A DNA stretch of 64,000 bases from Candidatus Saccharimonadales bacterium (GTDB lineage: Bacteria > Patescibacteriota > Saccharimonadia > Saccharimonadales > JANWIN01). The DNA lies in contig JBBRLY010000013.1 of the NCBI GenBank assembly GCA_038231155.1, forward strand, positions 4,305-68,304, read 5' to 3'. A program made the position numbers and the translations under genes. Under the pieces are notes generated by a model, which saw nothing but the letters and a program-made list of their open reading frames with translations, was not told the DNA's origin and searched no databases. Shown here in pieces: positions 3,745 to 21,471 of this stretch; the first letter of the stretch is position 1, and each line of letters starts with the position of its first letter.

Positions 3745-4089
3745 ATGACAACTGATATTAACTCTGCTTTTTTAGATAATTTGTTTGAGGCTCTGATGCA
3801 TCGTAAGCGACGGGGCATGATTAATACACTTTCTTACAGGCCGGCTACAGTAAGTCAATTAGCCGATGAATATAAATTATCGCTACCAGCCATACATAAG
3901 CACATACGAACTTTAGAAAAAGCTCAGTTGATCCGACGTAAAAAGGTTGGTCGAACAAACTTTGTTGCCCTAAACCATAAATCACTGCATTCAGCTCAAG
4001 ACTGGATTGCTCAATATCATACGGAATGGGCTAATGATAAGCAGTCGCTGGAAAATTATATCGCCAGCATGAAACACCGTCGGACATAA
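3745..4089 (+). CDS. ArsR/SmtB-family HTH transcriptional regulator
   Basis: 114 aa. The winged-HTH segment VSQLADEYKLSLPAIHKHIRTLEKAQLIRRKKVGRTNF is typical of the family. Confidence 0.75.
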   Translation: MTTDINSAFLDNLFEALMHRKRRGMINTLSYRPATVSQLADEYKLSLPAIHKHIRTLEKAQLIRRKKVGRTNFVALNHKSLHSAQDWIAQYHTEWANDKQSLENYIASMKHRRT

Positions 4090-5640: not shown

Positions 5641-6801
5641 TCAAAAATTTAGCCATTCTTCATCTTGCACTGCACCGCGGTTCTTAATACGAATCCCTGG
5701 CTCGTCATCGACTTCACCAATAACTTTAGCCCCATAAAGTCCGGCTTCATGTAAAAGTGGTAATACTTTATTCGGCTCTGGAGTGGCAATTACACCACCT
5801 GGGCCCATATGGAATTTACCATAGGCTTTCTGGTCACTAAAGCCTGCGATTTTTTGAATAAGTGTCATGATGTCTGGAGGTTCAATTGGGTTATCAATGG
5901 TGATACCGAGTCCGGAATCCTCTAACATCGTACGTAGCTTACTAGGTTGCCCGCCACCAGTTATATGTGCAAAACCAGTTACTTTAGCTTTTGGTTCTCG
6001 TCTAGAGTCCCAACCACCAGTGATATCAGTAACAATACCGTGGTAAACAGTAGCCGGAATTTGGACAAGCTGGCCAAGTGTTAGTTTGCCAATACTTGGT
6101 TCTATCTTTGTATGCCAGTTACTGCCATACTCTTGTTTCAAAGAACTACGGAAATCGGTCATTCCATTACAGCGGGGGCCCAGTTCTGGTAATCCGACTA
6201 ATTTATCTCCAGGTTGTAATGTTTTACCCGATAACACCTTAGCTTTATGTGTAAGAGTTAATACACCTGCACCCCAATTGTAATTAAATCTACCATAACC
6301 CTTAACTCTACCAATTAATTCAGCAATCTCGCCATTTATTGCTACAACACCAGCAACTTTAGAAACTGCTACCATGCCGGCTGATAATTCCCTCATTCCT
6401 TCAACTATTAGTGGATCACCAGGATCAAGTTTACCTGTATCAAGTACTGATCCCCAGGCTATGACTTGTGAACCAGAACGAAGTGCATCATCAAAAACCA
6501 TTGCTCCGAGATCAAAAGCACTTCCCATGTGGCTGGCGCCTTTACCTCGCGTAGTTTGCATACGTTCTCTAACTTCAACCTTCGTACCTATGCCATCAAA
6601 TCCTAAATTTTGTACGGTATCTGCAGCTTGATGTGCAAAAAGCTGACAGTCAATTCCCCTAAAACTTCTAAATGAATCATTGGCTCGCCAAACAGCTCCT
6701 GGAATATTTTCATATGTAGCTTGAGCGGCAATGTCAAACATCTGTGACATATCATCACCAAATTCAATATTTACTTCCTGAAACTGTGCGGGTGTAGACA
6801 T
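5641..6801 (-). CDS. purM: AIR-synthase (PurM) family protein
   Basis: 386 aa. By hand it is collinear with E. coli PurM blocks: DGIGTKVEV, DLGAMVFDD...TGKLD, NGEIAEL, GPRCNGMT, AHITGGG, FHMGPGGVIATP. Confidence 0.6.
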   Translation of the reverse strand: MSTPAQFQEVNIEFGDDMSQMFDIAAQATYENIPGAVWRANDSFRSFRGIDCQLFAHQAADTVQNLGFDGIGTKVEVRERMQTTRGKGASHMGSAFDLGAMVFDDALRSGSQVIAWGSVLDTGKLDPGDPLIVEGMRELSAGMVAVSKVAGVVAINGEIAELIGRVKGYGRFNYNWGAGVLTLTHKAKVLSGKTLQPGDKLVGLPELGPRCNGMTDFRSSLKQEYGSNWHTKIEPSIGKLTLGQLVQIPATVYHGIVTDITGGWDSRREPKAKVTGFAHITGGGQPSKLRTMLEDSGLGITIDNPIEPPDIMTLIQKIAGFSDQKAYGKFHMGPGGVIATPEPNKVLPLLHEAGLYGAKVIGEVDDEPGIRIKNRGAVQDEEWLNF

Positions 6802-7023: not shown

Positions 7024-7344
7024 ATGGTTGAACAAACTTTATATTTAAATAACATCTTCGCCTCGTTGGCCGATCCAACACGAAGGGATATTTTGCGGCG
7101 AGTAATAGAAAAAGAATTTAATATATCTGAACTTTCTGAATTTTACGATATGAGCTTTGCTGCAGTTGCCAAGCACTTGAAGGTCCTCGAAAAAGCTAGG
7201 TTAATTATTAAAAAGCCTGTTGGTAAGAACCAGATGATCGAAGCCAGCCCAGTTGCTATCAAAGAAGCCACCATTTACTTAAAACAATATGAGAAGCTAT
7301 GGAACGAACGTTTTGATAAATTAGAGCAAATTTTAAAGGAGTAA
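7024..7344 (+). CDS. ArsR/SmtB-family HTH transcriptional regulator
   Basis: 106 aa. LADPTRRDILRRV and ISELSEFYDMSFAAVAKHLKVLEKARLI fit the family. Confidence 0.75.
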   Translation: MVEQTLYLNNIFASLADPTRRDILRRVIEKEFNISELSEFYDMSFAAVAKHLKVLEKARLIIKKPVGKNQMIEASPVAIKEATIYLKQYEKLWNERFDKLEQILKE

Positions 7345-7402
7345 TAAAGCATATATAGGCATAGAGTAAGACTAATTAATTACTAAATGGAGAAATAAAA
7401 TT

Positions 7403-7915
7403 ATGAACAGTACAGAATTTACGCCTGATCTAAAAAATAAAAAACTAACCGTAGAGCGGGTCTTTGATGCGCCACGAGAAAAAGTCTGGCAGGCTTGGAC
7501 AGATGCTAAAATGTTTGCCAAATGGTGGGGCCCACGAGGTTGGAGCACAACTGTAAAGCAAATGGATTTCACTGAGGGTGGGTATCTACTTTATGGCATG
7601 AAGTGCGAAGATAAAAATCAAACTGAATGGTATGGTCAAGTATCGTGGGGTAAATCAATTTATAAAAGTATTGATGAACCAAACGAATTTAGATATGTTG
7701 ATTATTTTTGCGATGCTGATGGTAAAGTTAACAAAGAAATGCCAGTTATCACAATTACAATAAAGTTTAATGAAGTAGATGGCAAAACACGAGTTACTAG
7801 CCATAGTGTATTTGAATCTGAGTCAGCACTAAAACAAGTTATAGATATGGGCATGGAAGAAGGTCTGAAACAGACTTGGGATCGGTTAGCAGAGACTTTA
7901 GCTAAGCGTTCATAG
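7403..7915 (+). CDS. SRPBCC/AHSA1-domain protein
   Basis: 170 aa. RVFDAPREKVWQAWTD...WWGP is the typical AHSA1/START-like N-terminus. The ArsR partner pairing is a common arrangement. Confidence 0.6.
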   Translation: MNSTEFTPDLKNKKLTVERVFDAPREKVWQAWTDAKMFAKWWGPRGWSTTVKQMDFTEGGYLLYGMKCEDKNQTEWYGQVSWGKSIYKSIDEPNEFRYVDYFCDADGKVNKEMPVITITIKFNEVDGKTRVTSHSVFESESALKQVIDMGMEEGLKQTWDRLAETLAKRS

Positions 7916-8003
7916 CCTAGTCCTACGGAGTTTAATAAACTTTGGTAGCTGAACTACTCTTACTCGTCTGCTTTTTGGATTTTTGCTAGCATCAAACGGT
8001 ATT

Positions 8004-10750: not shown

Positions 10751-11134
10751 TTAGGAACTCTTTTCTACCCATTTTGAACGCCAAGCAGGTGCTTTAAAAG
10801 ACTCACTCCAATAAGCAGTTTCTTTAGCTATTTTCCCGGATTTAAATTCAAAAATGAATACCGTTTTATATGTCGGTCCGCCATAATTTAGATCGGCTTC
10901 GGCTATCACAAGCTGGCCATCACTTATCATTCTTCTTGGAGTTATCACTGGCAATTGTGGAAATAATTTATATATACCTCTGCGGTTATCGGCGCCAACA
11001 ACTTTTTCACCGGATTGGGGCCAGTCCATAATGGCGTCTTTTAAAAACAGATCATCCATTATTTCGATTTTGCGATCATTAATACATTTTATAAGTTGCG
11101 TTATGACTGCTTCATTTGCTGTATTCTGTGGCAT
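10751..11134 (-). CDS. SnoaL/NTF2-like domain protein
   Basis: 127 aa. The size and pattern (..FLKDAIMDWPQSGEKVVG.., FEFKSGKIAKETAYW) match the SnoaL-like polyketide cyclase fold. Confidence 0.5.
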   Translation of the reverse strand: MPQNTANEAVITQLIKCINDRKIEIMDDLFLKDAIMDWPQSGEKVVGADNRRGIYKLFPQLPVITPRRMISDGQLVIAEADLNYGGPTYKTVFIFEFKSGKIAKETAYWSESFKAPAWRSKWVEKSS

Positions 11135-11196: not shown

Positions 11197-11221
11197 TGGT
11201 TGAGCGTGCCGATGTAGAAAC
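11197..11221 (+). repeat. 25-nt intergenic motif, copy 1
   Basis: TGGTTGAGCGTGCCGATGTAGAAAC. It lies 36 nt past the VOC gene stop and 62 nt upstream of the SnoaL-like start. Confidence 0.7.
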
Positions 11222-11256: not shown

Positions 11257-11688
11257 CTAAGCGTTGCTAGCTTGTAAAATCGAGAAGCGGTTACCTTCTG
11301 TATCTTTTATAGAAATCCATAGACCGACACCGGGGATCATCTGCGGCTCCATGGTATGTTCACCTTTTTGGTTCATACCACCTAGTATTTTCCCGCCAGC
11401 ATCTTGGACGGCTTTCACGGCAACATTGATGTCATCGACAGAAACAACTACCGACGGGGCCTGGCTTAAAGGATTATCAGTTTTTTCGTAAAATCCACCA
11501 TTAATGGCGCCTTTTGTTTGAACCATACCGTTTTCATCAGTTTCAGTAGTGTGGGCGACCACATAATTGCCCATTTCCTCTCCCATATTTTCGGTTTTCC
11601 ACCCAAATACTTTTTGATAAAATTTGACCATTCGATCCTTGTCTTTGTAGCCCATCTCAAAATGCACAACTGGATTTGGCTTGTTCAT
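11257..11688 (-). CDS. VOC (glyoxalase/bleomycin-resistance) family protein
   Basis: 143 aa. VVHFEMGYKDKDRMVKFYQKVFGW is the typical VOC N-terminal beta-alpha-beta module. Confidence 0.65.
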   Translation of the reverse strand: MNKPNPVVHFEMGYKDKDRMVKFYQKVFGWKTENMGEEMGNYVVAHTTETDENGMVQTKGAINGGFYEKTDNPLSQAPSVVVSVDDINVAVKAVQDAGGKILGGMNQKGEHTMEPQMIPGVGLWISIKDTEGNRFSILQASNA

Positions 11689-11742: not shown

Positions 11743-11766
11743 TGTCTGAGCATGCCGGTCCAGAAC
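11743..11766 (+). repeat. 25-nt intergenic motif, copy 2
   Basis: TGTCTGAGCATGCCGGTCCAGAAC. A CTGAGCA...TGCTCAG inverted pair sits here (11746-11752 / 11776-11782). Confidence 0.75.
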
Positions 11767-11795
11767 ATGAAACACTGCTCAGCTGTCTCGTAAAG

Positions 11796-12074
11796 TTAGT
11801 ACTGCTTAGTTTCAACTATCTCGGCGGTACGAGCTTGTGGGTTTTTTATCACATCCACGTGACTCCATAGGTCAAGTAACGCGGTATGAGCCGCCTTTGC
11901 CTTGTCCAAGCTCTCAAACTCGAGATCGATCATGACGTAGTTAAGATTGTCGGTTGCGCGCAAGACGCGGTAGCTGCGAACGCCAGACTTTTCCCGGCCG
12001 ATTGGATCACTGTGGAATGCCTTATCCCAGGCATCGAAGTCGCCGACGGGGTGTTCGATTCGTAAAACGTACAT
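11796..12074 (-). CDS. small hypothetical protein (ABM/dimeric alpha-beta-barrel-like), G+C-rich
   Basis: I moved the start to the ATG at 12074, which has GGAG 6 nt upstream; the track start at 12110 has no SD. Sequence begins MYVLRIEHPVGDFDAWDKAF. Locally high G+C. Confidence 0.45.
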   Translation of the reverse strand: MYVLRIEHPVGDFDAWDKAFHSDPIGREKSGVRSYRVLRATDNLNYVMIDLEFESLDKAKAAHTALLDLWSHVDVIKNPQARTAEIVETKQY

Positions 12075-12245
12075 GTAAGCTCCTTCTTTGCGTGTTATTA
12101 ATGAATACATTATAACTCTTTAGCTGATACATGACAGTCAGTAATCTTGACGCAATACGGTTCTTTAATTATGAACGACCTCCCACGAGTATTAAACTAT
12201 GGAGTCAAACCTAGCCTTTCTGGACTTACATGCTGTAATAACTTT

Positions 12246-12270
12246 TGGTTGAGCATACCTGTCTAGACCC
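12246..12270 (+). repeat. 25-nt intergenic motif, copy 3
   Basis: TGGTTGAGCATACCTGTCTAGACCC. Confidence 0.7.
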
Positions 12271-12590
12271 CTGAATTTATCAAATAATTTCTGATTAGAA
12301 TTGTGGGGTTCTGGGACTAAGTTAAACGGATTGAATCCTGTTTCTCGTTTCACCAAGGTCTGCCGTATATGCTAATAGGATAGCCAGCTTTAAAAACTTC
12401 TTGTTTGGGCAAGAAAGGTATCTAAGAAAACCGGCATACCCCTAGAGAATCTTTAAATCATATTGCCTAAAAACCGTGACTGGCCACTATGTTCAGAGTT
12501 ATATTTTTGTTGATCGGCACACCCCAAGCGCTGAATTATGCCTCCTGGTACGCTGACCTATATAGTTATAATAGGTCTGTGTTTGAAAGG

Positions 12591-13088
12591 CTAGACAAGC
12601 AGACTTTTTTCTGTCCGCACATAGTGGCAAGTATAGCCGCCAGGATTATGTTGCAAGTAATCTTGGTGGTAAGCTTCGGCGGTATAAAAGGTCGTAAACT
12701 TTTCTAATGTTGTTACGACAGGATTTTTGTAAAGTCCCGAATGGTTTACCTTTTGAATAATATCTTGCGCAGTATGTAACTCCTTTTCATCCTGGTAGAA
12801 GATCGCAGAGCGATATGACGAACCGGTATCATTACCTTGTCTGTTGAGCGTCGTTGGATCGTGAATTCTGAAAAAGAAATCAAGTATAGTCATGTAGTTA
12901 GTTTTATTAGTGTCGTAGGTGATAGCTAGTGCTTCGGCATGTCCGGGGTGATTACTGTAGTCCGGGTTTTTGTTATCACCACCCGTATAACCAATTTCAG
13001 TGGCAATTATTCCAGGCTGCTCCCGAAATAGCTCCTCCAACCCCCAAAAACAACCACCTGCTAAATATATCGTTCTGTGCGTATTCAT
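12591..13088 (-). CDS. msrA: peptide-methionine (S)-S-oxide reductase
   Basis: 165 aa with the active-site GGCFWG motif near the N-terminus and no signal peptide. Confidence 0.9.
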   Translation of the reverse strand: MNTHRTIYLAGGCFWGLEELFREQPGIIATEIGYTGGDNKNPDYSNHPGHAEALAITYDTNKTNYMTILDFFFRIHDPTTLNRQGNDTGSSYRSAIFYQDEKELHTAQDIIQKVNHSGLYKNPVVTTLEKFTTFYTAEAYHQDYLQHNPGGYTCHYVRTEKSLLV

Positions 13089-13102
13089 AGTTTTATTCTC
13101 CT

Positions 13103-13351
13103 CTATATGTTTAGTGCTGACTTAAAGGCTCGCTGATTGTAGCCGCTAATTTTGATTTGCTTACCGGCATCGTTTGTTATGACAGTAAAAGGCACGCCAA
13201 TCATGCCATCATTTACAGACATGAACTCGGCCATAACTTCCTGGTCTGTATCAGTTATTTTCTTAGTATATTGGAAACCGTTTTTATGTAGCCAATCACC
13301 AAGGCTCTTGCAAGAAGCACAGATAGAGGTGGAATAGATGGTTATGATCAT
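13103..13351 (-). CDS. glutaredoxin/NrdH-like small redoxin
   Basis: 82 aa with a CASC (CxxC) motif after the first beta-strand and a GVPF cis-Pro region. Confidence 0.7.
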   Translation of the reverse strand: MIITIYSTSICASCKSLGDWLHKNGFQYTKKITDTDQEVMAEFMSVNDGMIGVPFTVITNDAGKQIKISGYNQRAFKSALNI

Positions 13352-13370
13352 GAGTTACTCCTTATCATAA

Positions 13371-15080
13371 TTAATTACCAAATGTAAAGGTATTCAGGAT
13401 GACGCCACCCGGCACCTTAAGCTCAATAATGCCACTACTAAAATCCTTAAAACTGGCAATGCGGTATAGATTAGATAGTTGTACGCTTACTTGACTGTTA
13501 GTGACATCAGTTCCAGCATCTCCAGACTGACTAACAGGCTGTCCATTAAAGCTAACTCCAACTGGAGTAGAGGTTGGTGCGCCTCCCACTAAATAGACAT
13601 TTTTGGCGGCAATGTTAATCCTAAGTTTTGCGTTCATGCCTGCCGTTATACTGCCTCCTGATACTTGCCACTCACCCGATAAGCTCCATTGTGAATTGGC
13701 TAGGTTAATTGCGTAGCTGTATGTTTGGTCTGGCTGTGACCCTAATGCTGGTGAACCGCTATAAGCCTGAGCACGATCAGTTCCCAAGTAGGTCTCGGGA
13801 GTTTGGTTTTGATTTATAGGTACGGGTGTATTGGATGGTGCGACGAGGTTTGATGACAATTTTGTTTTGCTTTTTTCACTCAACAACCCTCGAATAGCCT
13901 GTTCGGTCTGGTCGTATTCTCCCTCGCCGAAATGTTCTCGTCGTACGTTGCCATTTTGATCAATAAGGTACTCCGCTGGCCAGTATTGGTTTTGGTAGGC
14001 ATTCCAAGTGGCCAGATTGTCGTCTATGGCAATCGGATAGGTAAGGCCATCTTGCTTTACGGCTGCTGCAACATTAGACGGTATCTTTTCGTACGAGAAT
14101 TCAGGCGCTTCAACCCCCACTACTACTAGACCGTCTTTCTGGTAATGACTATACCATCCCTGTAAGTAGGGCAAGCTTCGGATGCAGTTGATACAAGTGT
14201 AAGTCCAGAAGTCGACCAAGACTACTTTGCCTTTAAGTTGCGCCAGGGTTTGAGGATTACTGTTAATCCAGCTTTGAATTCCAGTAAATTCAGGAGCTTT
14301 GAAAGCGGCTACATTGTAAAGTTTGGAGTTATCGATTGTTTTAGCATTAGACTGTTTTGGTATAAGTTTTGAGCTGAGATTATCAAACTTGAAGGGTGTA
14401 TGATCGGCTACTAGAACCTGCAGTTTTGTACCTGTACCGGTAATTATCATTATGCCGACCAAGATGAATAGTATTGCTAGAGTCCTCTGGAAGTAACCAT
14501 TAGGATTGCTGGCGAACTTTATGCGAGATGTAAGCCTCTGGCCGTAATAACCAACAGCCAGGAGTATCAAGGACAAACCAATGACATATGAAATAATGTA
14601 GGCCATTGCTGTCGCGAAGTGTGCTGGTAAGATAGTTGCTAAAATGTAGCCATATACTGGGCTACAACTCGAAAACACCGGTCCTAAGGCTGCTCCCGTA
14701 ATAATCGGTCCGATCATTTGGCTTCGATTACTGGTGCCCGTTCCAAGTAAACGCTGAGCTCGATGTTCAATACCTAGCTTAGCTATAATAGTAGCGTAGG
14801 TCTGCGGAAATAAGGTGGCTAAACCGAGGGCTACAATAATCCCTCCCGAGAAGTATGTAATAGTAGCTGGCGGGATGTTAATTAGTAAGGTTGTGGCCTT
14901 CAAAAGAACCGTAAAAACTATTAACGATATCGCCAATGACCCAGCTATTAAAAATGGTCGTCGCCGGTCTTTGCTTTCACCGGCTACTGAGCCACCGATA
15001 ATTACCGGTAGAAGTGGAAGCACGCAGGGTGCTAAGACAGTAAGTACTCCGGCAATGAATGCGCCTAACAGCAAAAACAT
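13371..15080 (-). CDS. CcdA/DsbD-type thiol-disulfide transporter fused to a TlpA/ResA-like thioredoxin domain plus a C-terminal beta-rich domain
   Basis: 569 aa. The N-terminal half has 6 TM segments with LAPCVLP and SSCSPVY Cys motifs. The middle has FWTYTCINC (CxxC). The last roughly 190 aa are of unknown function. Confidence 0.7.
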   Translation of the reverse strand: MFLLLGAFIAGVLTVLAPCVLPLLPVIIGGSVAGESKDRRRPFLIAGSLAISLIVFTVLLKATTLLINIPPATITYFSGGIIVALGLATLFPQTYATIIAKLGIEHRAQRLLGTGTSNRSQMIGPIITGAALGPVFSSCSPVYGYILATILPAHFATAMAYIISYVIGLSLILLAVGYYGQRLTSRIKFASNPNGYFQRTLAILFILVGIMIITGTGTKLQVLVADHTPFKFDNLSSKLIPKQSNAKTIDNSKLYNVAAFKAPEFTGIQSWINSNPQTLAQLKGKVVLVDFWTYTCINCIRSLPYLQGWYSHYQKDGLVVVGVEAPEFSYEKIPSNVAAAVKQDGLTYPIAIDDNLATWNAYQNQYWPAEYLIDQNGNVRREHFGEGEYDQTEQAIRGLLSEKSKTKLSSNLVAPSNTPVPINQNQTPETYLGTDRAQAYSGSPALGSQPDQTYSYAINLANSQWSLSGEWQVSGGSITAGMNAKLRINIAAKNVYLVGGAPTSTPVGVSFNGQPVSQSGDAGTDVTNSQVSVQLSNLYRIASFKDFSSGIIELKVPGGVILNTFTFGN

Positions 15081-15343
15081 TATTGACCTGTAGGTGTGCT
15101 ACCGGTTGAGCTTGTAGTAGCGTGCATCATCGCGTCGTGAGCTGCCATCTTGTCAGTTTCTGCTTGTTTCATCGCTGCGTCAGCCGCTGCTTTTTTAACG
15201 GCCTTTGCTTGCATTGTCTGGGAGGTCATCAGGGCATGGTCATTTGAAACCTTATCATTGTGGTGTACGACTAGCGCAGTAGCAGCTGAAAAGCCGATTA
15301 CCGCTATTAAGGCTATAATAATTTGAATATTCTTAGTATTCAT
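15080..15343 (-). CDS. membrane-anchored Met/His/Ala-rich small protein
   Basis: 87 aa with an AGGAGGG SD and one TM helix. Then VVHHND, MTSQTMQ and MAAHDAMMH. It overlaps the downstream gene by 1 nt. Confidence 0.5.
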   Translation of the reverse strand: MNTKNIQIIIALIAVIGFSAATALVVHHNDKVSNDHALMTSQTMQAKAVKKAAADAAMKQAETDKMAAHDAMMHATTSSTGSTPTGQ

Positions 15344-15378
15344 TAGGCTACCCTCCTGAAGTTTTTATGATATTGTTT

Positions 15379-15407
15379 AGTGTAGGATAAGAAATATGTA
15401 AAGTCAA
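15379..15407 (-). promoter_or_regulatory. promoter TTGACT-N17-TACACT for the Met-rich/ccdA/grx/msrA unit
   Basis: Read on the minus strand. The palindrome GTCAA-C-TTGAC (15403-15413) overlaps the -35. Confidence 0.4.
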
Positions 15408-15426
15408 CTTGACATATTAATAAAGC

Positions 15427-15795
15427 TCATTTGCGACTTATCCAGGTACTCACAATCAGTTTCGTAATAACCATTGCACCTAGTGTAATTGCTAACCAAA
15501 GATCGAGATGATGCTGAATAGATTGAATAATGATTGCCACCACTAGTACGCCACCGCCAATAAAATATGAAATGCGACCAGCCATGAGACCATAGAGGGC
15601 TTCGCGTTCGTCATGAGGTTTCTCGCGCCAGATGAACACGGCGAAGGCAATTACCGCAACGGCAAGTATCATTATTAAAGAAAGCGTGACCGCAGAAGTC
15701 ATTAGTATACTGAGTGGATTTATAAGAAGCACCAAAGCAATAACTATGGCTAAGCCTATCAGTCCTTCTGAAGCCTGGGGTAGCCTAAGTTTCAT
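15427..15795 (-). CDS. integral membrane protein (3-4 TM), partner of the XRE regulator
   Basis: 122 aa, strongly hydrophobic. It overlaps the upstream regulator gene by 11 nt. Confidence 0.5.
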   Translation of the reverse strand: MKLRLPQASEGLIGLAIVIALVLLINPLSILMTSAVTLSLIMILAVAVIAFAVFIWREKPHDEREALYGLMAGRISYFIGGGVLVVAIIIQSIQHHLDLWLAITLGAMVITKLIVSTWISRK

Positions 15796-16054
15796 ATTGG
15801 AATACCATTTCTAGGGAGGTGTTAAATTGTCTACTTATTTTAAGCGCTAATAGTACCGAAGGCACATAATTGCCTTTTTCGATTGAGATAATCGTCTGTC
15901 TGGTTACGTTCACCATTTTGCCTAATTCCTCTTGCGTCATTCCAGCTTTTTTACGATATTTCTCAACGCTATTTATAACTTTCTCTCGCGTTGCCATGCA
16001 GACTACTATAGCATCACTTTGTAAAGTTAGTTTAACATTTTCTTTATATATCAT
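15785..16054 (-). CDS. XRE-family HTH transcriptional regulator
   Basis: MTQEELGKMVNVTRQTIISIEKGNYVPSVLLALKISRQF is the Cro/C1-type HTH. The true start may be the ATG at 15997. Confidence 0.75.
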   Translation of the reverse strand: MIYKENVKLTLQSDAIVVCMATREKVINSVEKYRKKAGMTQEELGKMVNVTRQTIISIEKGNYVPSVLLALKISRQFNTSLEMVFQYET

Positions 16055-16148
16055 CAGTCGTTCTTCGAATAAGTATAAGATAAGCTAATCGTTACATCGG
16101 TTCTAACATACTCAATGGCCGACTAAAATTAACAGATACAAAATGAGG

Positions 16149-16173
16149 TGGCTGAGCACCCCGGTCTAGAACC
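16149..16173 (+). repeat. 25-nt intergenic motif, copy 4
   Basis: TGGCTGAGCACCCCGGTCTAGAACC. A partial inverted copy, GGTTCTAAC, lies about 60 nt to its left. Confidence 0.8.
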
Positions 16174-16226
16174 GTTAACCAATAAAGATAGGTTTTACTC
16201 AAGCTATTGTCTGGCAGAGCTTTAAA

Positions 16227-17552
16227 TTACTTTGTAAGTTGATAATTAGTAAAGCCAACATGAGAATCCTCGTTATAAAAGCCTGGTCGGCCAGAAGTAT
16301 ACGGAGTCTGGGTGTCGGTAAATGTAGTAATCAGTTGGTCATTTACGTAGGCGCTAATTTTATTATTACTGTCTTGGAATATTGAGATCTTATACCAGGG
16401 GCCGATAGGATAGCTTGGCGAAGAGCTGTCCGCCAGGAAGCGCTGCGATCCGGGGTAGGCGGGGTCTTCTTTCCCCAGCTCCCAGCCGTTTGTTTTTGGG
16501 GTAAAGTAGTAAAAATGATTGTCGTCGGTGTAATTCCAAACGACCCAAGCAACCTCCCACGGATTTGGAGCTGAACCGGTTCTGAGCTGTTTAAACGTAG
16601 TGAGTAGTGTATTAAACGCTATCGGACCTGAGTGTGACTGACCTAGTACCAATGAGGCATGCGTTTCGGATGCTGAAGTGCTAGCCTTAGGAGATTCGTC
16701 TAAGTAGGTTTGACTTGACGCTGTTTTAATTTGCGTACAGCCGTAACCGTTATAGGTTGATGTCCATTGTCCAAAAGTAGTCCCATCAGGGAAACATAAG
16801 TTTTGGGTGTAGCTAGAAAAATTCTCAACTGTTGCACCGGGTGTTATAACAAGATTGGAAATATCAAGTTTAGTATTACTAGCAGTATCACTAATAAAAA
16901 ATTCTACTCCTTGGTAGGTATTCGGGTTATGAATTATGCTAAGGCAAGCTATTTGTTGGTAACTGGTTGAGCTTTCAGTGTAAGCTACACTTGCGAGAGT
17001 GCTACCTATAGGTGAGCTACCAAACTCTTTGGCTGATAGACTCCCAGTGCTCGTGCCACTTGCAGCCCTAGCCGTTAGACATACGCTGTAACCAGTACCG
17101 GTAAGTCCATTTGCTGTAATAGCTGCCACACCGTTCGATTGATTGGTTGAGTTAGCTATTTGAATAGCATTTGGAGATTTAGAGTTATCACCTATAACTG
17201 AGGCATTTATAGAATTAGCAGGATCAAAATTATGATAGTTTAAAGTTATCTGTGTACCAGTTGATGTCTGTGTCGTAGCTGCATGACTAAACTTAAGACC
17301 TATTACACCAAGTACTCCAAAAAGTATGGCAAAGGCAGCAACCCGACTATAAGTAAATGCACTGGGCTTTTTAGGCAGAGGTTTATACTTTACTTTATTC
17401 GATATTCTTGTGTCTGTTTCTTTTTTATCTAGATTCGCTTGAGTGTTATTAGAGGCGGTTGTGTCATTATCTGATGCAGCGGTTTCATTCTGTTCTTGCG
17501 GGTGATTTTCCATCAACTTTTTTAGATGTCCTTGAGATTTACGATGTTTCAT
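16227..17552 (-). CDS. membrane-anchored secreted protein with C-terminal LamG/DUF1080-like jelly-roll domain
   Basis: 441 aa with a TM helix at about residues 70-90. The C-terminus (WVVWNYTDDNHFYYF...ISAYVNDQLI...GRPGFY) fits the concanavalin-like pattern. Confidence 0.45.
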   Translation of the reverse strand: MKHRKSQGHLKKLMENHPQEQNETAASDNDTTASNNTQANLDKKETDTRISNKVKYKPLPKKPSAFTYSRVAAFAILFGVLGVIGLKFSHAATTQTSTGTQITLNYHNFDPANSINASVIGDNSKSPNAIQIANSTNQSNGVAAITANGLTGTGYSVCLTARAASGTSTGSLSAKEFGSSPIGSTLASVAYTESSTSYQQIACLSIIHNPNTYQGVEFFISDTASNTKLDISNLVITPGATVENFSSYTQNLCFPDGTTFGQWTSTYNGYGCTQIKTASSQTYLDESPKASTSASETHASLVLGQSHSGPIAFNTLLTTFKQLRTGSAPNPWEVAWVVWNYTDDNHFYYFTPKTNGWELGKEDPAYPGSQRFLADSSSPSYPIGPWYKISIFQDSNNKISAYVNDQLITTFTDTQTPYTSGRPGFYNEDSHVGFTNYQLTK

Positions 17553-17611: not shown

Positions 17612-19015
17612 ATGATAAAAGGTAATATCAATGTGGCTGGGCATTGCGGTCTATTACCAGACAGTACTAAAATTGCTTATGCTATAGTTAAGACATTAGT
17701 GCAAGATACCCCTAACCCCCATCAAATAGCCAAAGAAACCGCGTCCCCACCCAGGCTTAAAAGTAGGCGCGTTACTATCATAGTTGGAGTGGCCGTGCTG
17801 GGACTATTACTTATAGCGCTCGGCACCTTCTTTGCGTTCAAGAATTACAGTATTGTCCATAAATCTACAAACAAATCTGCTCAGCCCAGTAATAAGCAGG
17901 TTACCGCTATCGATCCAGCCCTACAGGCTGGCCAGGAGCTGTCAAGTGGCAAGTGCAACGGCAGTGGCGCTGGTAAATTGACCGTCCCGGCCATGAATCC
18001 CGCCGACTTCTCAATTCTCATTCCGTATGGACTAGTGGTGGGCGGCCACGTTACCCCCATTGATCACCAATACTGGGCTCCAGCCAATTACAACTCCCCG
18101 CTTAATGCCTATCCAGTATTTGCCATGGGCGACGCCCACATTACCGACATTGAACCTCGCACTCATGCAGACCCAACAAACCCAACCAAATCCTACACCG
18201 AATACCGTCTAGTCTTTACTCATAGCTGTACATGGTTATACTACTACGACCTAGTAACTAGTCTTTCGCCTGACATCAAAGCCATTTACGACAAACACGG
18301 TGGTTTTGATATTCCAGTTAAAGCTGGCCAGATGATTGGACGGATTGGTCATCAGACGCTCGACTTCGCCGTCTGGGATACCACTAAGCCTCTGAAGGGC
18401 TTCATTAACCCCACTAGCTACAAAAGCGAGGCTTGGAAAATCTACACCGCTAACCCTCTAAATTATATGTCGGCCAGCCTCAAAGCCTTAGTCATCGCTC
18501 GTGACCCTAGAACGGCTGAACCGATTGAAGGCAAGATAGATTACGACCTTGACGGCAAGCTAATTGGTAACTGGTTTGTTAAGGGCACAGGTGGTTACAG
18601 TGGCGGCGTTAGTAGCGGCCAACCCAATTATTGGAAGACCCATCTATCTATTGTTCCCAATCTGTACGATCCTAGTGCTTTCATATTGTCTATTGGCAGC
18701 TGGCAGACCTCCAATGGACAATTAGCAGATCAGTTTGCAGCTAAGGGCAATGCCCCCGACCCTTCTACTGTCAGTGTCGCAACCGGGTTAGTTAGGTATA
18801 ACTTAGTCAAGTTTAACTATACGGCACAAGATGGCACTCCTTGGACGCAAATGAACGTGATTAAGAACCCAAAACTTCAGCTGCAAGTGCAGATAGAGGG
18901 CTGTGCATTAGTGCAGCTAACAGGTGATCGGGCATTAAAGTTTGAAGCCATCCAAGGCAAAAGTTGTGCCAGCATTAATGGCTTTAGTGCCAACGCCAAA
19001 GCTTACGAACGTTAA
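17612..19015 (+). CDS. membrane-anchored secreted protein, possibly a degenerate LytM/M23-like domain; G+C-rich
   Basis: 467 aa with a TM helix (VTIIVGVAVLGLLLIALGTFFAF). VKAGQMIGRIGHQTLDF resembles an M23 strand but lacks HxH. The first 16 codons overlap motif copy 5, so the in-frame GTG at 17699 is an alternative start. Confidence 0.4.
   Translation: MIKGNINVAGHCGLLPDSTKIAYAIVKTLVQDTPNPHQIAKETASPPRLKSRRVTIIVGVAVLGLLLIALGTFFAFKNYSIVHKSTNKSAQPSNKQVTAIDPALQAGQELSSGKCNGSGAGKLTVPAMNPADFSILIPYGLVVGGHVTPIDHQYWAPANYNSPLNAYPVFAMGDAHITDIEPRTHADPTNPTKSYTEYRLVFTHSCTWLYYYDLVTSLSPDIKAIYDKHGGFDIPVKAGQMIGRIGHQTLDFAVWDTTKPLKGFINPTSYKSEAWKIYTANPLNYMSASLKALVIARDPRTAEPIEGKIDYDLDGKLIGNWFVKGTGGYSGGVSSGQPNYWKTHLSIVPNLYDPSAFILSIGSWQTSNGQLADQFAAKGNAPDPSTVSVATGLVRYNLVKFNYTAQDGTPWTQMNVIKNPKLQLQVQIEGCALVQLTGDRALKFEAIQGKSCASINGFSANAKAYER
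17634..17658 (+). repeat. 25-nt intergenic motif, copy 5 (most divergent)
   Basis: TGGCTGGGCATTGCGGTCTATTACC, 19/25 to copy 4. It lies 81 nt upstream of the LamG-like gene start. Confidence 0.55.
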
Positions 19016-19052
19016 ATAACCGTATTTATCTTTTAATTTTTCTTAGACAGAT

Positions 19053-19078
19053 TGGCTGGGGAAAAGGGATGCGAACTC
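19053..19078 (-). repeat. duplicate of the 3' end of tRNA-Gln (CCA, acceptor 3' strand, T-arm)
   Basis: TGGCTGGGGAAAAGGGATGCGAACTC versus 21331-21356 TGGCTGGGGAAGAGGGATTTGAACCC: 22/26, with the first 11 identical. No rest of a tRNA is adjacent. Confidence 0.7.
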
Positions 19079-19081
19079 TAT

Positions 19082-19330
19082 TTAACGAGGCAAAGTTATT
19101 CCAGCTTGTTTAGCCGCGCTAACTAGTTTAGAATTTAATGTTAAAATCTTCTTTTCAATTGATAGTTTATCAAATTCTTTTGTGATAATTGGTTCGCTTT
19201 GAATTTGTGCAATCATGTCGTAGATTTCTTTTATGTCATTCCTTAATGCGTGTAACTCGCCCTGAACAGGCTGAATTTCCTCCTTGATTATATTCCGTAT
19301 TTCTTGCAGATCTGACGATGTTAGACTCAT
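19082..19330 (-). CDS. small coiled-coil hypothetical protein
   Basis: 82 aa with a heptad-like pattern (LQEIRNIIKEEIQPVQGELHALRNDIKEIYDMI). Confidence 0.4.
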   Translation of the reverse strand: MSLTSSDLQEIRNIIKEEIQPVQGELHALRNDIKEIYDMIAQIQSEPIITKEFDKLSIEKKILTLNSKLVSAAKQAGITLPR

Positions 19331-19376
19331 ACAGTTATTTTAGCATGCGTTAACTGCGGCTTAATACTTATTATAT

Positions 19377-19401
19377 TGGCTGAGCATGCCTGGTGTTGAA
19401 C
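19377..19401 (+). repeat. 25-nt intergenic motif, copy 6
   Basis: TGGCTGAGCATGCCTGGTGTTGAAC. In gene sense it is followed directly by TATAAT. Confidence 0.65.
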
Positions 19402-19543
19402 TCATTCAATAAAGTGATGAGACTTGTACCAAAGATTCGTATTAGCAAGCCGAAGTTGGATATACAACAGCTTAGAACAACTCCCCCTTGTTCAGGATCA
19501 GAAATAATTAGGGCATGAGAAGATTCTATACAACGACTAACGT

Positions 19544-20134
19544 TTATTGTAGGAGATCTTCGTTGGCGGCCTCAAAGACTGTAGATATTTTGCCTTCGCA
19601 ATCAAACGAAAACGAAATGACTTTTTTAGTACTGGATTTGCCAACCACGGCATTACTCGGGAAATATGTTTTATAGAAACTCTTGGCGTAGCCGCTTGTG
19701 ACAGAAGACGCTAGAGCAAAATCCCAAGTTGTAGTTGTGGGGTCACCGATAAAACTGGTGATATCGGTTACGGCTTGAGTTGGTGTTTGCACACCAATGC
19801 TCTCGCTGGCCGCTACTATTACAGTCACCTTGATCGCCATGTAGCCTTCCAGCGCGGCAGTGTTGCCGGAAGTAATGCTGGCTTTGATATTGTCTAAATT
19901 GCTAGCGCTAGGGTCTTTGCATACAGTTTTAGGTGGTGTAACCTCAGTTGAAGTAGTCGTCTTTGGCGTTGCTGCTGGTGCGGGTTTTGAGTTAGAACTA
20001 GGTGTGGTTTTTTTGCTGTCGTTATTTTGTTTCCAAATGTACCAGCCCAATGCACCTAAAATGATTAGTATTAACAATATCAGCAATAGCTCCACCATGC
20101 CCATACCATGTTGATTAGATCTTAGTTTTCGCAT
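19544..20134 (-). CDS. type IV pilin-like protein (non-canonical prepilin leader)
   Basis: 196 aa. The sequence MRKLRSNQHG/MGMVELLLILLILII has a basic leader ending in Gly, Glu at +5 and a hydrophobic helix. Confidence 0.5.
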   Translation of the reverse strand: MRKLRSNQHGMGMVELLLILLILIILGALGWYIWKQNNDSKKTTPSSNSKPAPAATPKTTTSTEVTPPKTVCKDPSASNLDNIKASITSGNTAALEGYMAIKVTVIVAASESIGVQTPTQAVTDITSFIGDPTTTTWDFALASSVTSGYAKSFYKTYFPSNAVVGKSSTKKVISFSFDCEGKISTVFEAANEDLLQ

Positions 20135-20222
20135 TAACCACCCCGCTATTTATTAGCTTAAGCATATATCTAAATCTATAAGCAATCAAATCAAGGTTTA
20201 AGAAATTCGTATATTATTATTT

Positions 20223-20247
20223 GAGCTGAGCACCTCGGTCTAGAACC
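20223..20247 (+). repeat. 25-nt intergenic motif, copy 7
   Basis: GAGCTGAGCACCTCGGTCTAGAACC, 22/25 to copy 4. It lies 10 nt past the purC stop. Confidence 0.8.
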
Positions 20248-20256
20248 TATAATGAT

Positions 20257-21168
20257 TCATACCGTATAATCCAAAAGATTATTCATAATTCGTTCTCTTA
20301 CTGGTGTAATTAAGTCTGGCCGGAAAGGCTGACCGGTTAATTGTTGATACACCTGAATGTATCGCCTAGTCATTTCCATAACTTTACCTTTTGGTGCATC
20401 TGGCATAAATTCATCATCATACGGTCTGCTATTAGTCTGAAACCATAAGCGAAGAAACTCTTTGTCATAATTCTCAGGCTCTTGTCTTTGCTCAAATTTT
20501 TCTGAGTAATCAGCCATTTGCCAATATCTTGATGAGTCTGGTGTATGTAACTCATCGATTAGGATAATTTCACCAGTGTCGTTTATACCAAACTCATACT
20601 TAGTGTCCACTAGTACCAGGCTGTGTTCTCGAGCAACATGTTGACCAAAGCCAAATAGCTCTAGCGCTACTGAAACTAGTCTGTCTCTAGTTTCAGTGTC
20701 AACTAGGCCTTCTTTTACAATGCTATCGAGCGTAAGATTACGGTCATGAGTTTCTAATTTTGTAGATGGTGTAATAACCGGATGATTAAGTCGTTGGTTT
20801 TTATGTAAGTTATCGGGAAGTATAAAATCCCCGAAATCGCGCTGCCCTTTATCATACGTTTTCCATAAAGACGTATTGGTTACACTAGTAACGAATCCTC
20901 TCACGATCATCTCTACTGGTAATACATCACATCTTTGAGCAACAGTAACGTTGGGATCAGGATACCCTATAGCATGGTTATCAATGATATGTCTAGTTCT
21001 ATCGAACCACCAACGACTTATTTGCGTAACTGTCTCTCCTTTATATGGCACAAGTGCTAAATTACGATCAAAAGCAGAATAACGATCAGTCGCTACCAAC
21101 AATACTCTTCCTGGCTGCTCATATATGTCTCTAACCTTACCAACTCTTTTCTCCTCAATTTCAGGCAT
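20257..21168 (-). CDS. purC: phosphoribosylaminoimidazole-succinocarboxamide (SAICAR) synthase, long form
   Basis: GKVRDIYE and LLVATDRYSAFD motifs. I moved the start to the ATG at 21168, which has GAGGAA 6 nt upstream. The track's 5' extension to 21405 runs through the tRNA gene. Confidence 0.8.
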   Translation of the reverse strand: MPEIEEKRVGKVRDIYEQPGRVLLVATDRYSAFDRNLALVPYKGETVTQISRWWFDRTRHIIDNHAIGYPDPNVTVAQRCDVLPVEMIVRGFVTSVTNTSLWKTYDKGQRDFGDFILPDNLHKNQRLNHPVITPSTKLETHDRNLTLDSIVKEGLVDTETRDRLVSVALELFGFGQHVAREHSLVLVDTKYEFGINDTGEIILIDELHTPDSSRYWQMADYSEKFEQRQEPENYDKEFLRLWFQTNSRPYDDEFMPDAPKGKVMEMTRRYIQVYQQLTGQPFRPDLITPVRERIMNNLLDYTV

Positions 21169-21330
21169 ATATGTTTCCTCAAGAATAAATCTTTGAGGAG
21201 GGTCTAATAATCCGAGATCTATATCAGTAAAATCTAACGCCTCATGACCAAGTTGTTCGCCTCTGTCTGGCATAGATATATTTAAACATACAAGTCTCGG
21301 AACACGGTCACAACCCCTGTTGCTAATGCT

Positions 21331-21404
21331 TGGCTGGGGAAGAGGGATTTGAACCCCCGATCCTGGGACCAGAACCCAGTGCCTTACCGCTTGGCCATTC
21401 CCCA
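21331..21404 (-). tRNA. tRNA-Gln (anticodon CUG), CCA encoded
   Basis: Hand-folded cloverleaf. Acceptor TGGGGAA/TTCCCCA with U1-A72 as in bacterial tRNA-Gln. Anticodon stem CTGGG/CCCAG with loop TTCTGGT. T-arm GGGGG-TTCAAAT-CCCTC. Confidence 0.85.
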
Positions 21405-21471
21405 TTACTAGCGAGGTTATTGTAACAATTTGTATCTGTACTGACCAGGATATTGTATACTTAATTCAAAT

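Follow-up and report, generated by a model that had tools for sequence, protein, structure and literature searches.

Introduction

The staphylococcal cassette chromosome (SCC, with SCCmec) is moved by large serine recombinases (Ccr), which insert it at the 3' end of rlmH; short direct repeats derived from the target mark its ends, and further units accrete in tandem. Pseudo-SCC units without a recombinase also exist and have presumably been moved in trans. The tycheposon islands of Prochlorococcus lie next to tRNA genes, and full and partial tRNAs flank their elements (bioRxiv 10.1101/2020.12.28.424599). Successive integrations push the older elements inward and leave degenerate remnants and partial tRNAs behind; the elements are multi-gene, many with replication genes, their repeats copy the host tRNA, and their enzymes are tyrosine recombinases (910/937), with a large serine recombinase in a minority (bioRxiv 10.1101/2020.12.28.424599). 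The present study deals with a stretch of 64,000 nucleotides (the window) from Candidatus Saccharimonadales bacterium (assembly GCA_038231155.1, contig JBBRLY010000013.1, positions 4,305 to 68,304), in which a fragment at 19053-19078 repeats the 3' end of a tRNA-Gln(CUG) gene. A first-pass annotation had taken the two copies for the classic attL/attR scar of an integrase-mediated insertion, bracketing a decayed 2.25-kb islet with purC, a pilin-like gene and a gene for an 82-aa coiled-coil protein (p82).

The analysis favors a different reading, with a probability of roughly 0.6: the fragment is one among the sites of an SCC- or integron-like cassette array, which has its anchor at the 3' end of tRNA-Gln. 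The evidence consists of the sites themselves, their bias in strand and position, the tie between the fragment and p82, breakpoints of homology that fall at the sites, and recombinases at the tRNA-Gln of relatives.

The tRNA-Gln repeat and related sites in the window

ARAGORN calls a single intact tRNA gene within the 64 kb. Its 3' end reads GGGTTCAAATCCCTCTTCCCCAGCCA in tRNA orientation, with the core GGTTCAAATCC-CTCT-TCCCCAGCCA. Re-measurement agreed with the first-pass annotation that the fragment, in the same orientation, matches this end at 22 of 26 positions with the first 11 nt of the plus-strand 26-mer identical. One more identical base at 19052/21330 extends the match to 23/27. All four mismatches fall, in tRNA orientation, within the 5' 15 nt, and the last 11–12 nt are exact. 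A distance of 2278 nt separates the tRNA 3' end from the fragment downstream of it. All other positions of the window, on both strands, show at least 9 mismatches to the 26-mer. When the window was simulated 300 times with a first-order Markov model, the closest match had 6 mismatches, reached once, and the mode was 9, which places the repeat far beyond chance. As the annotation had also stated, no 5' remainder of a tRNA stands beside the fragment according to ARAGORN and Rfam. A second tRNA or pseudo-tRNA at the fragment was considered and is called by neither program. An Rfam scan of 10.5–22 kb returned nothing besides tRNA-Gln, so there is no match for the sites.

The sites are about 25 nt long, conservation stops short of their flanks, and they occur in two forms. 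The T type resembles the tRNA itself. The M type follows the consensus GGTTCTAGACC-N4-TGCTCAGCCA and is a mimic of the tRNA-Gln 3' end of the same length. The two copies of a 25-nt motif within the interval between fragment and tRNA read, in tRNA orientation, GGTTCTAGACC-GAGG-TGCTCAGC(T)CA and GTTCAACACC-AGGCA-TGCTCAGCCA, and both share length and register with the tRNA end. A profile from 68 metagenome sites (model R1) has six matches in the window with E<0.1 (16149-16176, 20225-20250, 11746-11766, 19374-19390, 17632-17653 and 12244-12267), every one of them a minus-strand match within 11.7–20.3 kb. M sites only were used to build a position weight matrix (PWM), whose scores are listed with those of R1 in Table 1. 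Six to eight sites, all on the tRNA strand, divide the region; with the T-type fragment and the weak site at 11197-11221 counted, the stretch from 21331 to about 11.2 kb falls into eight units. From the tRNA, their order is purC, a 196-aa protein, p82, a 467-aa protein (reversed), a 441-aa protein, a block running from a helix-turn-helix (HTH) protein to MsrA, a 104-aa protein and a glyoxalase.

The supposed 2.25-kb islet is therefore not a single element, the sites at 20222-20247 and 19377-19402 splitting it into three single-gene cassettes. Of the content ascribed to it, purC, the 82-aa protein, the two 25-nt motifs and the lack of a recombinase were confirmed, but the label "pilin-like" is weakly supported. 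The only relevant Pfam match of the 196-aa protein is Flp1_like at 19.6 bits against a cutoff of 33.5 bits, so the protein is at most weakly pilin/Flp-like.

Linkage of the fragment to p82 and cassettes shared between arrays

Homologues of p82 number 76, and the named ones all belong to Saccharimonadales. A T-like site begins 1–12 nt past the p82 stop codon in five genomes, namely in the window and in the loci L259, L253, L254/L255 and L079, and the neighbors of p82 differ in every genome. The L259 homologue is 78% identical and has T-like sites on both sides of the gene. In L079, L253, L254 and L259, p82 and its site occur without purC or the pilin-like gene. Since the site stands right behind p82 in five genomes, the fragment travels with p82 and is the 3' site of that cassette, and not the far end of an insertion made up of purC, the pilin-like gene and p82.

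These observations make it unlikely that a single islet of these three genes was inserted as a unit by an integrase since lost, with the fragment as the displaced tRNA end (attR). The geometry and the significance of the repeat are right for such an event, the confinement of the mismatches to the 5' part is as expected for a crossover inside the site, and relatives hold comparable bracketed islets; yet two sites lie inside the interval, the series of sites runs 8 kb past the fragment, and the fragment is tied to p82 amid different neighbors in four other genomes. By a direct count of identities, the site in L259 (20/25) and the resident tRNA (21/25) are also about equally close to it. What stands of the attL/attR interpretation is a tRNA-end site with the geometry expected of site-specific insertion; the notion of one islet with one pair of ends does not.

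Other units of the cassette array also recur elsewhere. The SnoaL gene is 79.5% identical to a copy in L254, where an M site follows it, and p82 is 65% identical to its homologue in the same locus. The glyoxalase is 64% identical to an L138 homologue beside an M site. Within L254 (1-9400), the p82 homologue lies next to a type I restriction subunit, a nucleotidyltransferase like those of SMODS and the cyclic oligonucleotide-based antiphage signaling system (CBASS), a LexA-like protein and MazEF, with M sites throughout. The arrays may double as defense islands.

The purC gene is full length (55% identity over 319 aa to a homologue of 321 aa), and its best database matches are 53–58% identical. 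Five homologues that were looked up all lie in purE-purM-purC-purB operons. By comparison, RarA has more than 100 homologues at 77–83% identity and p82 reaches 78%. The earlier proposal that purC was acquired horizontally looks correct: the DNA available behind tRNA-Gln in 120 related species, at most 8 kb per block and often less, contains no purC, and the nearest homologues do not exceed 58%. No other pur gene was found in the window. On sequence comparison, purC, the cassette nearest the tRNA, was probably captured from a pur operon of another Patescibacteria lineage. The pur operons with the nearest homologues (L125-L127) adjoin the cytochrome oxidase genes COX1-3, which is unusual for the Patescibacteria-type genomes named among the matches. 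A 386-aa protein at 5641-6801 on the minus strand, 13 kb from the lone purC, has an AIRS_C domain only and belongs to the PurM superfamily; it was rejected as evidence of a purine pathway, being merely 24% identical to operon PurM. The longest purC open reading frame (ORF; 20257-21405, 382 aa) begins inside tRNA-Gln, and its first ~25 residues are translated tRNA. A public 382-aa protein record has this tRNA-derived N-terminus, and its tblastn search matches the tRNA in dozens of loci. The true start is probably the ATG at 21273.

The tRNA-Gln loci of relatives

A 33-nt segment from the 5' half of the tRNA, outside the repeat, retrieved 120 tRNA-Gln loci from species-representative genomes. 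Nearly all are titled Saccharibacteria/Saccharimonadales or generic metagenome-assembled genome, and three are binned under other phyla. Upstream of tRNA-Gln, many of them keep the order and orientation of duf213, Cu/Zn superoxide dismutase, rarA, DNA glycosylase, FUR, RmuC, glycoside hydrolase and PheST. The gene adjoining the anchor encodes a DUF1345-like membrane protein, which is syntenic in relatives and is not IntI. The window genes 3' of the tRNA are not syntenic in these loci, the exceptions being L079 with its p82 homologue and L117. Three pairs align over kilobases upstream (L010/L061, L018/L060 and L056/L120), and in each of them the homology breaks off at the final base of the tRNA. 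Taken with the upstream synteny, this makes the tRNA 3' end a sharp line that divides core from variable DNA. In L117, homologues of window positions 7403-7915, 7024-7344 and 3745-4089 follow within 0.75–1.3 kb after the tRNA and are collinear. Its ArsR/AHSA1 pair (745-1300) lies within about 1 kb of tRNA-Gln and that of the window (7024-7915) 13.4 kb away, in the same relative order; the pair may once have bordered the tRNA directly, before the whole array was inserted between them.

About a dozen of the 120 loci hold an intact tRNA-Gln together with a downstream copy of its 3' 18–26 nt on the same strand. An upstream copy was never seen in them. These partial copies bracket 0.03–4.8 kb, and ORF inspection of the bracketed DNA found RelE/ParE-, PIN-, MazF-, HicAB- and Fic/Doc-type modules, a glycosyltransferase, a TetM-like GTPase with the p82 homologue (L079) and a Pfam-confirmed large serine recombinase of 489 aa (L049). 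Array cargo elsewhere also includes restriction and CBASS-like genes, and such content is typical of mobile islands. The M pattern taken from the window only has 13 matches in the 120 loci, with 12 downstream on the tRNA strand, one downstream on the other strand and none upstream. The PWM also scores the tRNA 3' end itself in 92–105 of the loci. It yields 26–34 downstream matches on the same strand and no more than 10 in any other class, despite 479 kb searched upstream against 326 kb downstream.

The M pattern, used by itself, retrieved a further 120 loci from metagenomes. They contain 20 tRNA-Gln genes, every one upstream of a site and on the same strand, and another tRNA type without tRNA-Gln was present in one locus only. 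These tRNA-Gln genes have CUG or UUG anticodons and acceptor and D arms that differ widely, and thus come from distinct lineages. The M core beside them is identical, which means that M did not arise by decay of the local tRNA. Gene content around the sites is extremely diverse.

Homology breakpoints also fall at the sites. A 0.8-kb cassette is common to L010 and L066 with 94% identity; the homology runs from one T site to the last base of the next, and the neighbors on either side are unrelated. L134 and L242 match at 100% identity as far as the tRNA reaches, and beyond its last base unrelated and shared cassettes alternate; their last shared block starts 1–2 nt past the site in both contigs. 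Both pairs show the pattern that a crossover at the site's 3' edge would be expected to leave. A screen of the 240 loci for clean insertion/deletion pairs (identity of 85% or more) found none, and a looser search gave breakpoints of the replacement type.

These breakpoints bear on a second explanation, by which the sites would act in RNA as tRNA-like 3' ends or as processing or stability signals on mRNAs read through from the tRNA promoter, their likeness to att sites being incidental. The nearest upstream ORF is indeed co-oriented with the metagenome site in 79 cases against 29, its end lying a median of about 64 nt away, and the sites finish in CCA and start with a T-arm-like GGTTC..ACC hairpin. 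Against it stand the breakpoints in DNA and the confinement of the sites to the region downstream of tRNA-Gln, instead of a spread across the genome. In addition, the position equivalent to A58 of the T loop varies (TCTAGA, TCCTGA, TCCAGA), and the sites have no 5' acceptor partner, no covariation with their flanks and no match in Rfam. The explanation is accordingly improbable, more so than the single islet. Still less credible is that the sites are decayed duplicates of tRNA-Gln or a generic dispersed repeat without a role in recombination. Only the 3' ~25 nt recur, always on the tRNA strand and always downstream, and random decay would not yield an M core that is constant across hosts with differing acceptor stems; L020, where tandem 5' 33-mers show that partial tRNA duplication does occur at this locus, is the evidence for such relics. 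Its three copies of the 33-mer (7549-7977) are spaced by 182 nt, ARAGORN calls only the last intact, and the partial copies sit upstream of the gene, opposite to the 3' fragments of other loci. Chance, for which nothing but the shortness of the match speaks, is ruled out by the simulations, by the mismatch count at every other position of the window and by the same phenomenon in about a dozen other genomes.

Recombinases and a model of the cassette array

When the ORFs in the first 4 kb downstream of the tRNA were clustered across the 120 tRNA-Gln loci, the largest family by far was a large serine recombinase, present in 23/120 loci and abutting or reading into tRNA-Gln. Its members have Resolvase and Recombinase domains and in one case Zn_ribbon_recom. 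The gene is convergent with tRNA-Gln, and its frame often enters the tRNA. It is the sole recombinase family among the clustered ORFs; no tyrosine integrase at tRNA-Gln was found in those families or in the gene calls of the window (about 1–52 kb), and the enzymes at this tRNA in relatives are not of the classic tyrosine type. Homologues stand near M sites in 9/120 metagenome loci, either just after the site or 0.3–3.7 kb before it, and in L075 the recombinase abuts a displaced T fragment. From this co-location with tRNA-Gln and M sites, the family is likely the enzyme that acts on the sites. In L104, L058, L032, L070, L080, L122 and L068, the recombinase frame runs antisense through the whole tRNA-Gln (C-terminus ...WLGMRDSNPRSWDQNPVPYRLANP). 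The attachment site thus seems to lie inside the 3' coding region of the recombinase, and integration would alter its C-terminus.

In the model that these patterns suggest, the window from about 10.7 to 21.3 kb would consist mostly of single-gene modules, each closed on the tRNA strand by a ~25-nt mimic of the tRNA-Gln end. The modules would be gained, lost and exchanged by site-specific recombination, presumably through circular intermediates and in some order of insertion, with a crossover that may fall exactly at the 3' edge of the site (...CCA|). Each cassette would then carry its own site at its 3' end. tRNA-Gln would play the role that attI has in integrons or the rlmH 3' end in SCC, and recombinases would themselves be cassettes beside tRNA-Gln in other genomes. 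With no recombinase among the gene calls of the window (about 1–52 kb), the array would be static or moved in trans.

Several observations weigh against this model. There is no recombinase in the 2.25-kb interval or in the gene calls of the window at about 1–52 kb (52–64 kb lay outside the scan). The region is therefore non-autonomous, as the first-pass annotation had held of its islet. Most recombinase-bearing loci show no M or T site in the 3–7 kb available downstream, and the M sites have no clear dyad symmetry of the kind expected of a recombinase core. At the first M site of L134/L242 the breakpoint lies 43–74 nt beyond the site. The indel between L202 and L225 has a site at one end only and was not used as evidence. 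The GC content of the array is not distinct from that of the rest of the window. Neither an empty-site variant nor a circular junction was found for this organism, whose only other contigs are near-identical. Look-ups of exact proteins for an islet-free strain likewise gave near-identical contigs only, and no empty site with the flank on the 19052 side was found in relatives. Of 28 metagenome loci that reach 3 kb or more beyond the M site on its upstream side, 12 show tRNA-Gln and 16 lack it within that span. Several of the loci without a tRNA are dense same-strand arrays; either the arrays are very long, or M sites occur elsewhere too.

A wider claim can be put forward more tentatively, at somewhat less than even odds: that this is an undescribed cassette system of Patescibacteria, with a tRNA-Gln (CUG/UUG) anchor and cassettes that end in GGTWCYWGACC-N4-TGCTCAGCCA, shuffled by large serine recombinases that are cassettes too, and forming the main variable and defense locus of these reduced genomes. 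The layout is found in many Saccharibacteria/Patescibacteria and has seemingly not yet been described; a literature search gave no description of such an array in either group. Gene gain is poorly understood in these ultra-small episymbiotic bacteria with tiny genomes, and a hot spot behind tRNA-Gln would locate strain-specific genes. If the claim is true, toxin-antitoxin, defense, surface and stray metabolic cassettes such as purC are exchanged at a recognizable 25-base site. tRNA-Gln and the motif together would give a sequence handle for the variable gene pool in metagenomes, and they point to a serine recombinase family whose target is short, defined and tRNA-like. In annotation, a purC that stands alone in a genome of this kind would count as cassette cargo and not as evidence of purine synthesis.

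Features of the window and side observations

The features of the window are collected in Table 1. Within the multi-gene sixth unit, the DsbD/thioredoxin fusion occupies 13371-15080 and MsrA 12591-13088. Its 82-aa ORF at about 13.1–13.35 kb was compared with p82 as a possible paralogue and is not one. The SnoaL gene is probably the last cassette.

Table 1. Sites, tRNA and putative cassettes of the array, in order from tRNA-Gln (E values and bits of R1 and PWM scores as obtained)
Feature	Position	Strand	Sequence or evidence	Remark
tRNA-Gln(CUG)	21331..21404	(-)	ARAGORN; Rfam tRNA 61.7 bits	putative array anchor; 3' end would be the first site
Flank directly 3' of tRNA-Gln	21295..21330	(-)	sequence, flank lists	small hairpin and ACCGT motif (AGCATTAGCAACAGGGGTTGTGACCGTGTTCC)
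Cassette 1: purC (SAICAR synthase)	20257..21273	(-)	PF01259, E 1.6e-59	338 aa from the probable start ATG 21273
M-type site	20222..20247	(-)	GGTTCTAGACCGAGGTGCTCAGCTCA; R1 26.6 bits, E 3.5e-7; PWM 32.9	10 nt past purC stop
Cassette 2: 196-aa protein	19544..20134	(-)	ORF; sub-threshold Pfam matches only	hydrophobic N-terminus
M-type site	19377..19402	(-)	AGTTCAACACC-AGGCA-TGCTCAGCCA; R1 13.8 bits, E 0.004	5-nt spacer
Cassette 3: p82	19082..19330	(-)	no Pfam match	82 aa, predicted coiled-coil
T-type site (repeat fragment)	19053..19078	(-)	GAGTTCGCATCCCTTTTCCCCAGCCA; 22/26 vs resident tRNA 3' end	starts 3 nt past p82 stop
Cassette 4: 467-aa protein	17612..19015	(+)	no Pfam match	opposite orientation
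Weaker M-type site	17634..17658	(-)	GGTAATAGACCGCAATGCCCAGCCA; PWM 25.0; R1 E 0.055	overlaps 5' end of 467-aa ORF
Cassette 5: 441-aa protein	16227..17552	(-)	ORF	secreted-type
M-type site	16149..16173	(-)	GGTTCTAGACCGGGGTGCTCAGCCA; R1 30 bits, E 3e-8; PWM 39.9	best copy in window
Cassette 6, multi-gene	12271..16148	(-)		HTH protein, two small membrane proteins, DsbD/thioredoxin fusion, 82-aa ORF, MsrA
M-type site	12246..12270	(-)	GGGTCTAGACAGGTATGCTCAACCA; PWM 30.9; R1 E 0.095	
104-aa ORF	11796-12110			precedes M-type site 11743-11767
M-type site	11743..11767	(-)	TGTTCTGGACCGGCATGCTCAGACA; R1 E 0.002; PWM 33.0	
Glyoxalase gene	11257-11688			between sites 11743-11767 and 11197-11221
Weak site	11197..11221	(-)	GTTTCTACATCGGCACGCTCAACCA; PWM 19.7	behind glyoxalase gene
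SnoaL gene	10751-11134			after weak site 11197-11221

The flank directly 3' of tRNA-Gln resembles the CACCAAAGGTGACCGTAATGCC motif that follows tRNA-Gln or the sites in some relatives. A small hairpin with this motif (consensus CACCAAAGGTGACCGTAATGCC) stands after ...CCA in about 10% of cases, for example in L139, L146, L149, L159 and L174, and may be a right-hand half-site or a 5' element of the cassette. A conserved right-hand arm (GCACC...GTGACCG) was considered; it stands behind only about 8–12% of sites or tRNAs and therefore does not belong to the site in general. In L136 (10942-11076), L165 (26-160 and 10629-10708), L054 (4923-5131), L175 (1137-1233) and L202 (324-420), two or three M sites follow one another at spacings of only 55–92 nt, with no gene between them. 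They could be empty cassettes or multi-site structures.

Two other explanations of the M motif were considered and set aside. As a promoter or operator it would fit its position upstream of -10-like AATAAT boxes, yet it is strictly tied to tRNA-Gln in other genomes, and a recombination site therefore fits better. As to a phage origin, the M pattern has 0 exact matches in IMG/VR and the tRNA 3' 25-mer two.

Comparison with known systems

As in classic tRNA islands and prophages, one end of the bracketed DNA is formed by an intact tRNA and the opposite end by a direct repeat of the tRNA 3' end. The locus also resembles the accretion of cis-mobilizable elements (CIME) in streptococci, in which elements without an integrase can persist and be mobilized in cis or in trans. 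It differs in that no tyrosine integrase was seen at this tRNA in the gene calls of the window or the clustered families of relatives, each array has many sites, and the site class is independent of the host tRNA. The bracketed DNA is also not one unit here but three cassettes, and p82 with its site is found without the other two genes in relatives.

Like tycheposons, the window and about 12 relatives have partial tRNA copies of the T type scattered beside the full tRNA. In contrast to tycheposons, single-gene cassettes here end in a mimic that is conserved across hosts with different tRNAs, and the gene calls of the window (about 1–52 kb) hold neither a tyrosine recombinase nor replication genes.

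With SCC the locus has in common that insertion takes place behind a single conserved gene, at its 3' end, that sites resembling the target recur from one tandem unit to the next, and that some units lack a recombinase; large serine recombinases are a further parallel, which occur here in relatives and are likened to Ccr by class. The anchor is, however, a tRNA and not rlmH, the units are much smaller and often single-gene, and the hosts are Patescibacteria. Most sites here belong to the conserved, cassette-borne 25-nt M class and are not copies of the host target, and a large serine recombinase encoded by the island was not found in the gene calls of this window (about 1–52 kb).

Integrons share with the locus cassettes that are mostly co-oriented and single-gene, each with its own 3' site, as well as a fixed chromosomal anchor and diverse cargo. 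They differ in the enzyme and in the site. No IntI lies beside the anchor here, the anchor is a tRNA 3' end, and the candidate enzyme is a serine recombinase. The attC sites are imperfect palindromes of 57–141 nt with RYYYAAC...GTTRRRY cores, whereas the sites described here are about 25 nt long and have no R''/L''/L'/R' palindrome. If the wider claim is true, the locus would functionally be an integron made of a tRNA gene and a serine recombinase. Overall, two features seem to be new when set beside these systems, namely the cassette-borne 25-nt mimic of the tRNA-Gln end, which is constant across hosts with different tRNAs, and the very small, often single-gene, size of the units.

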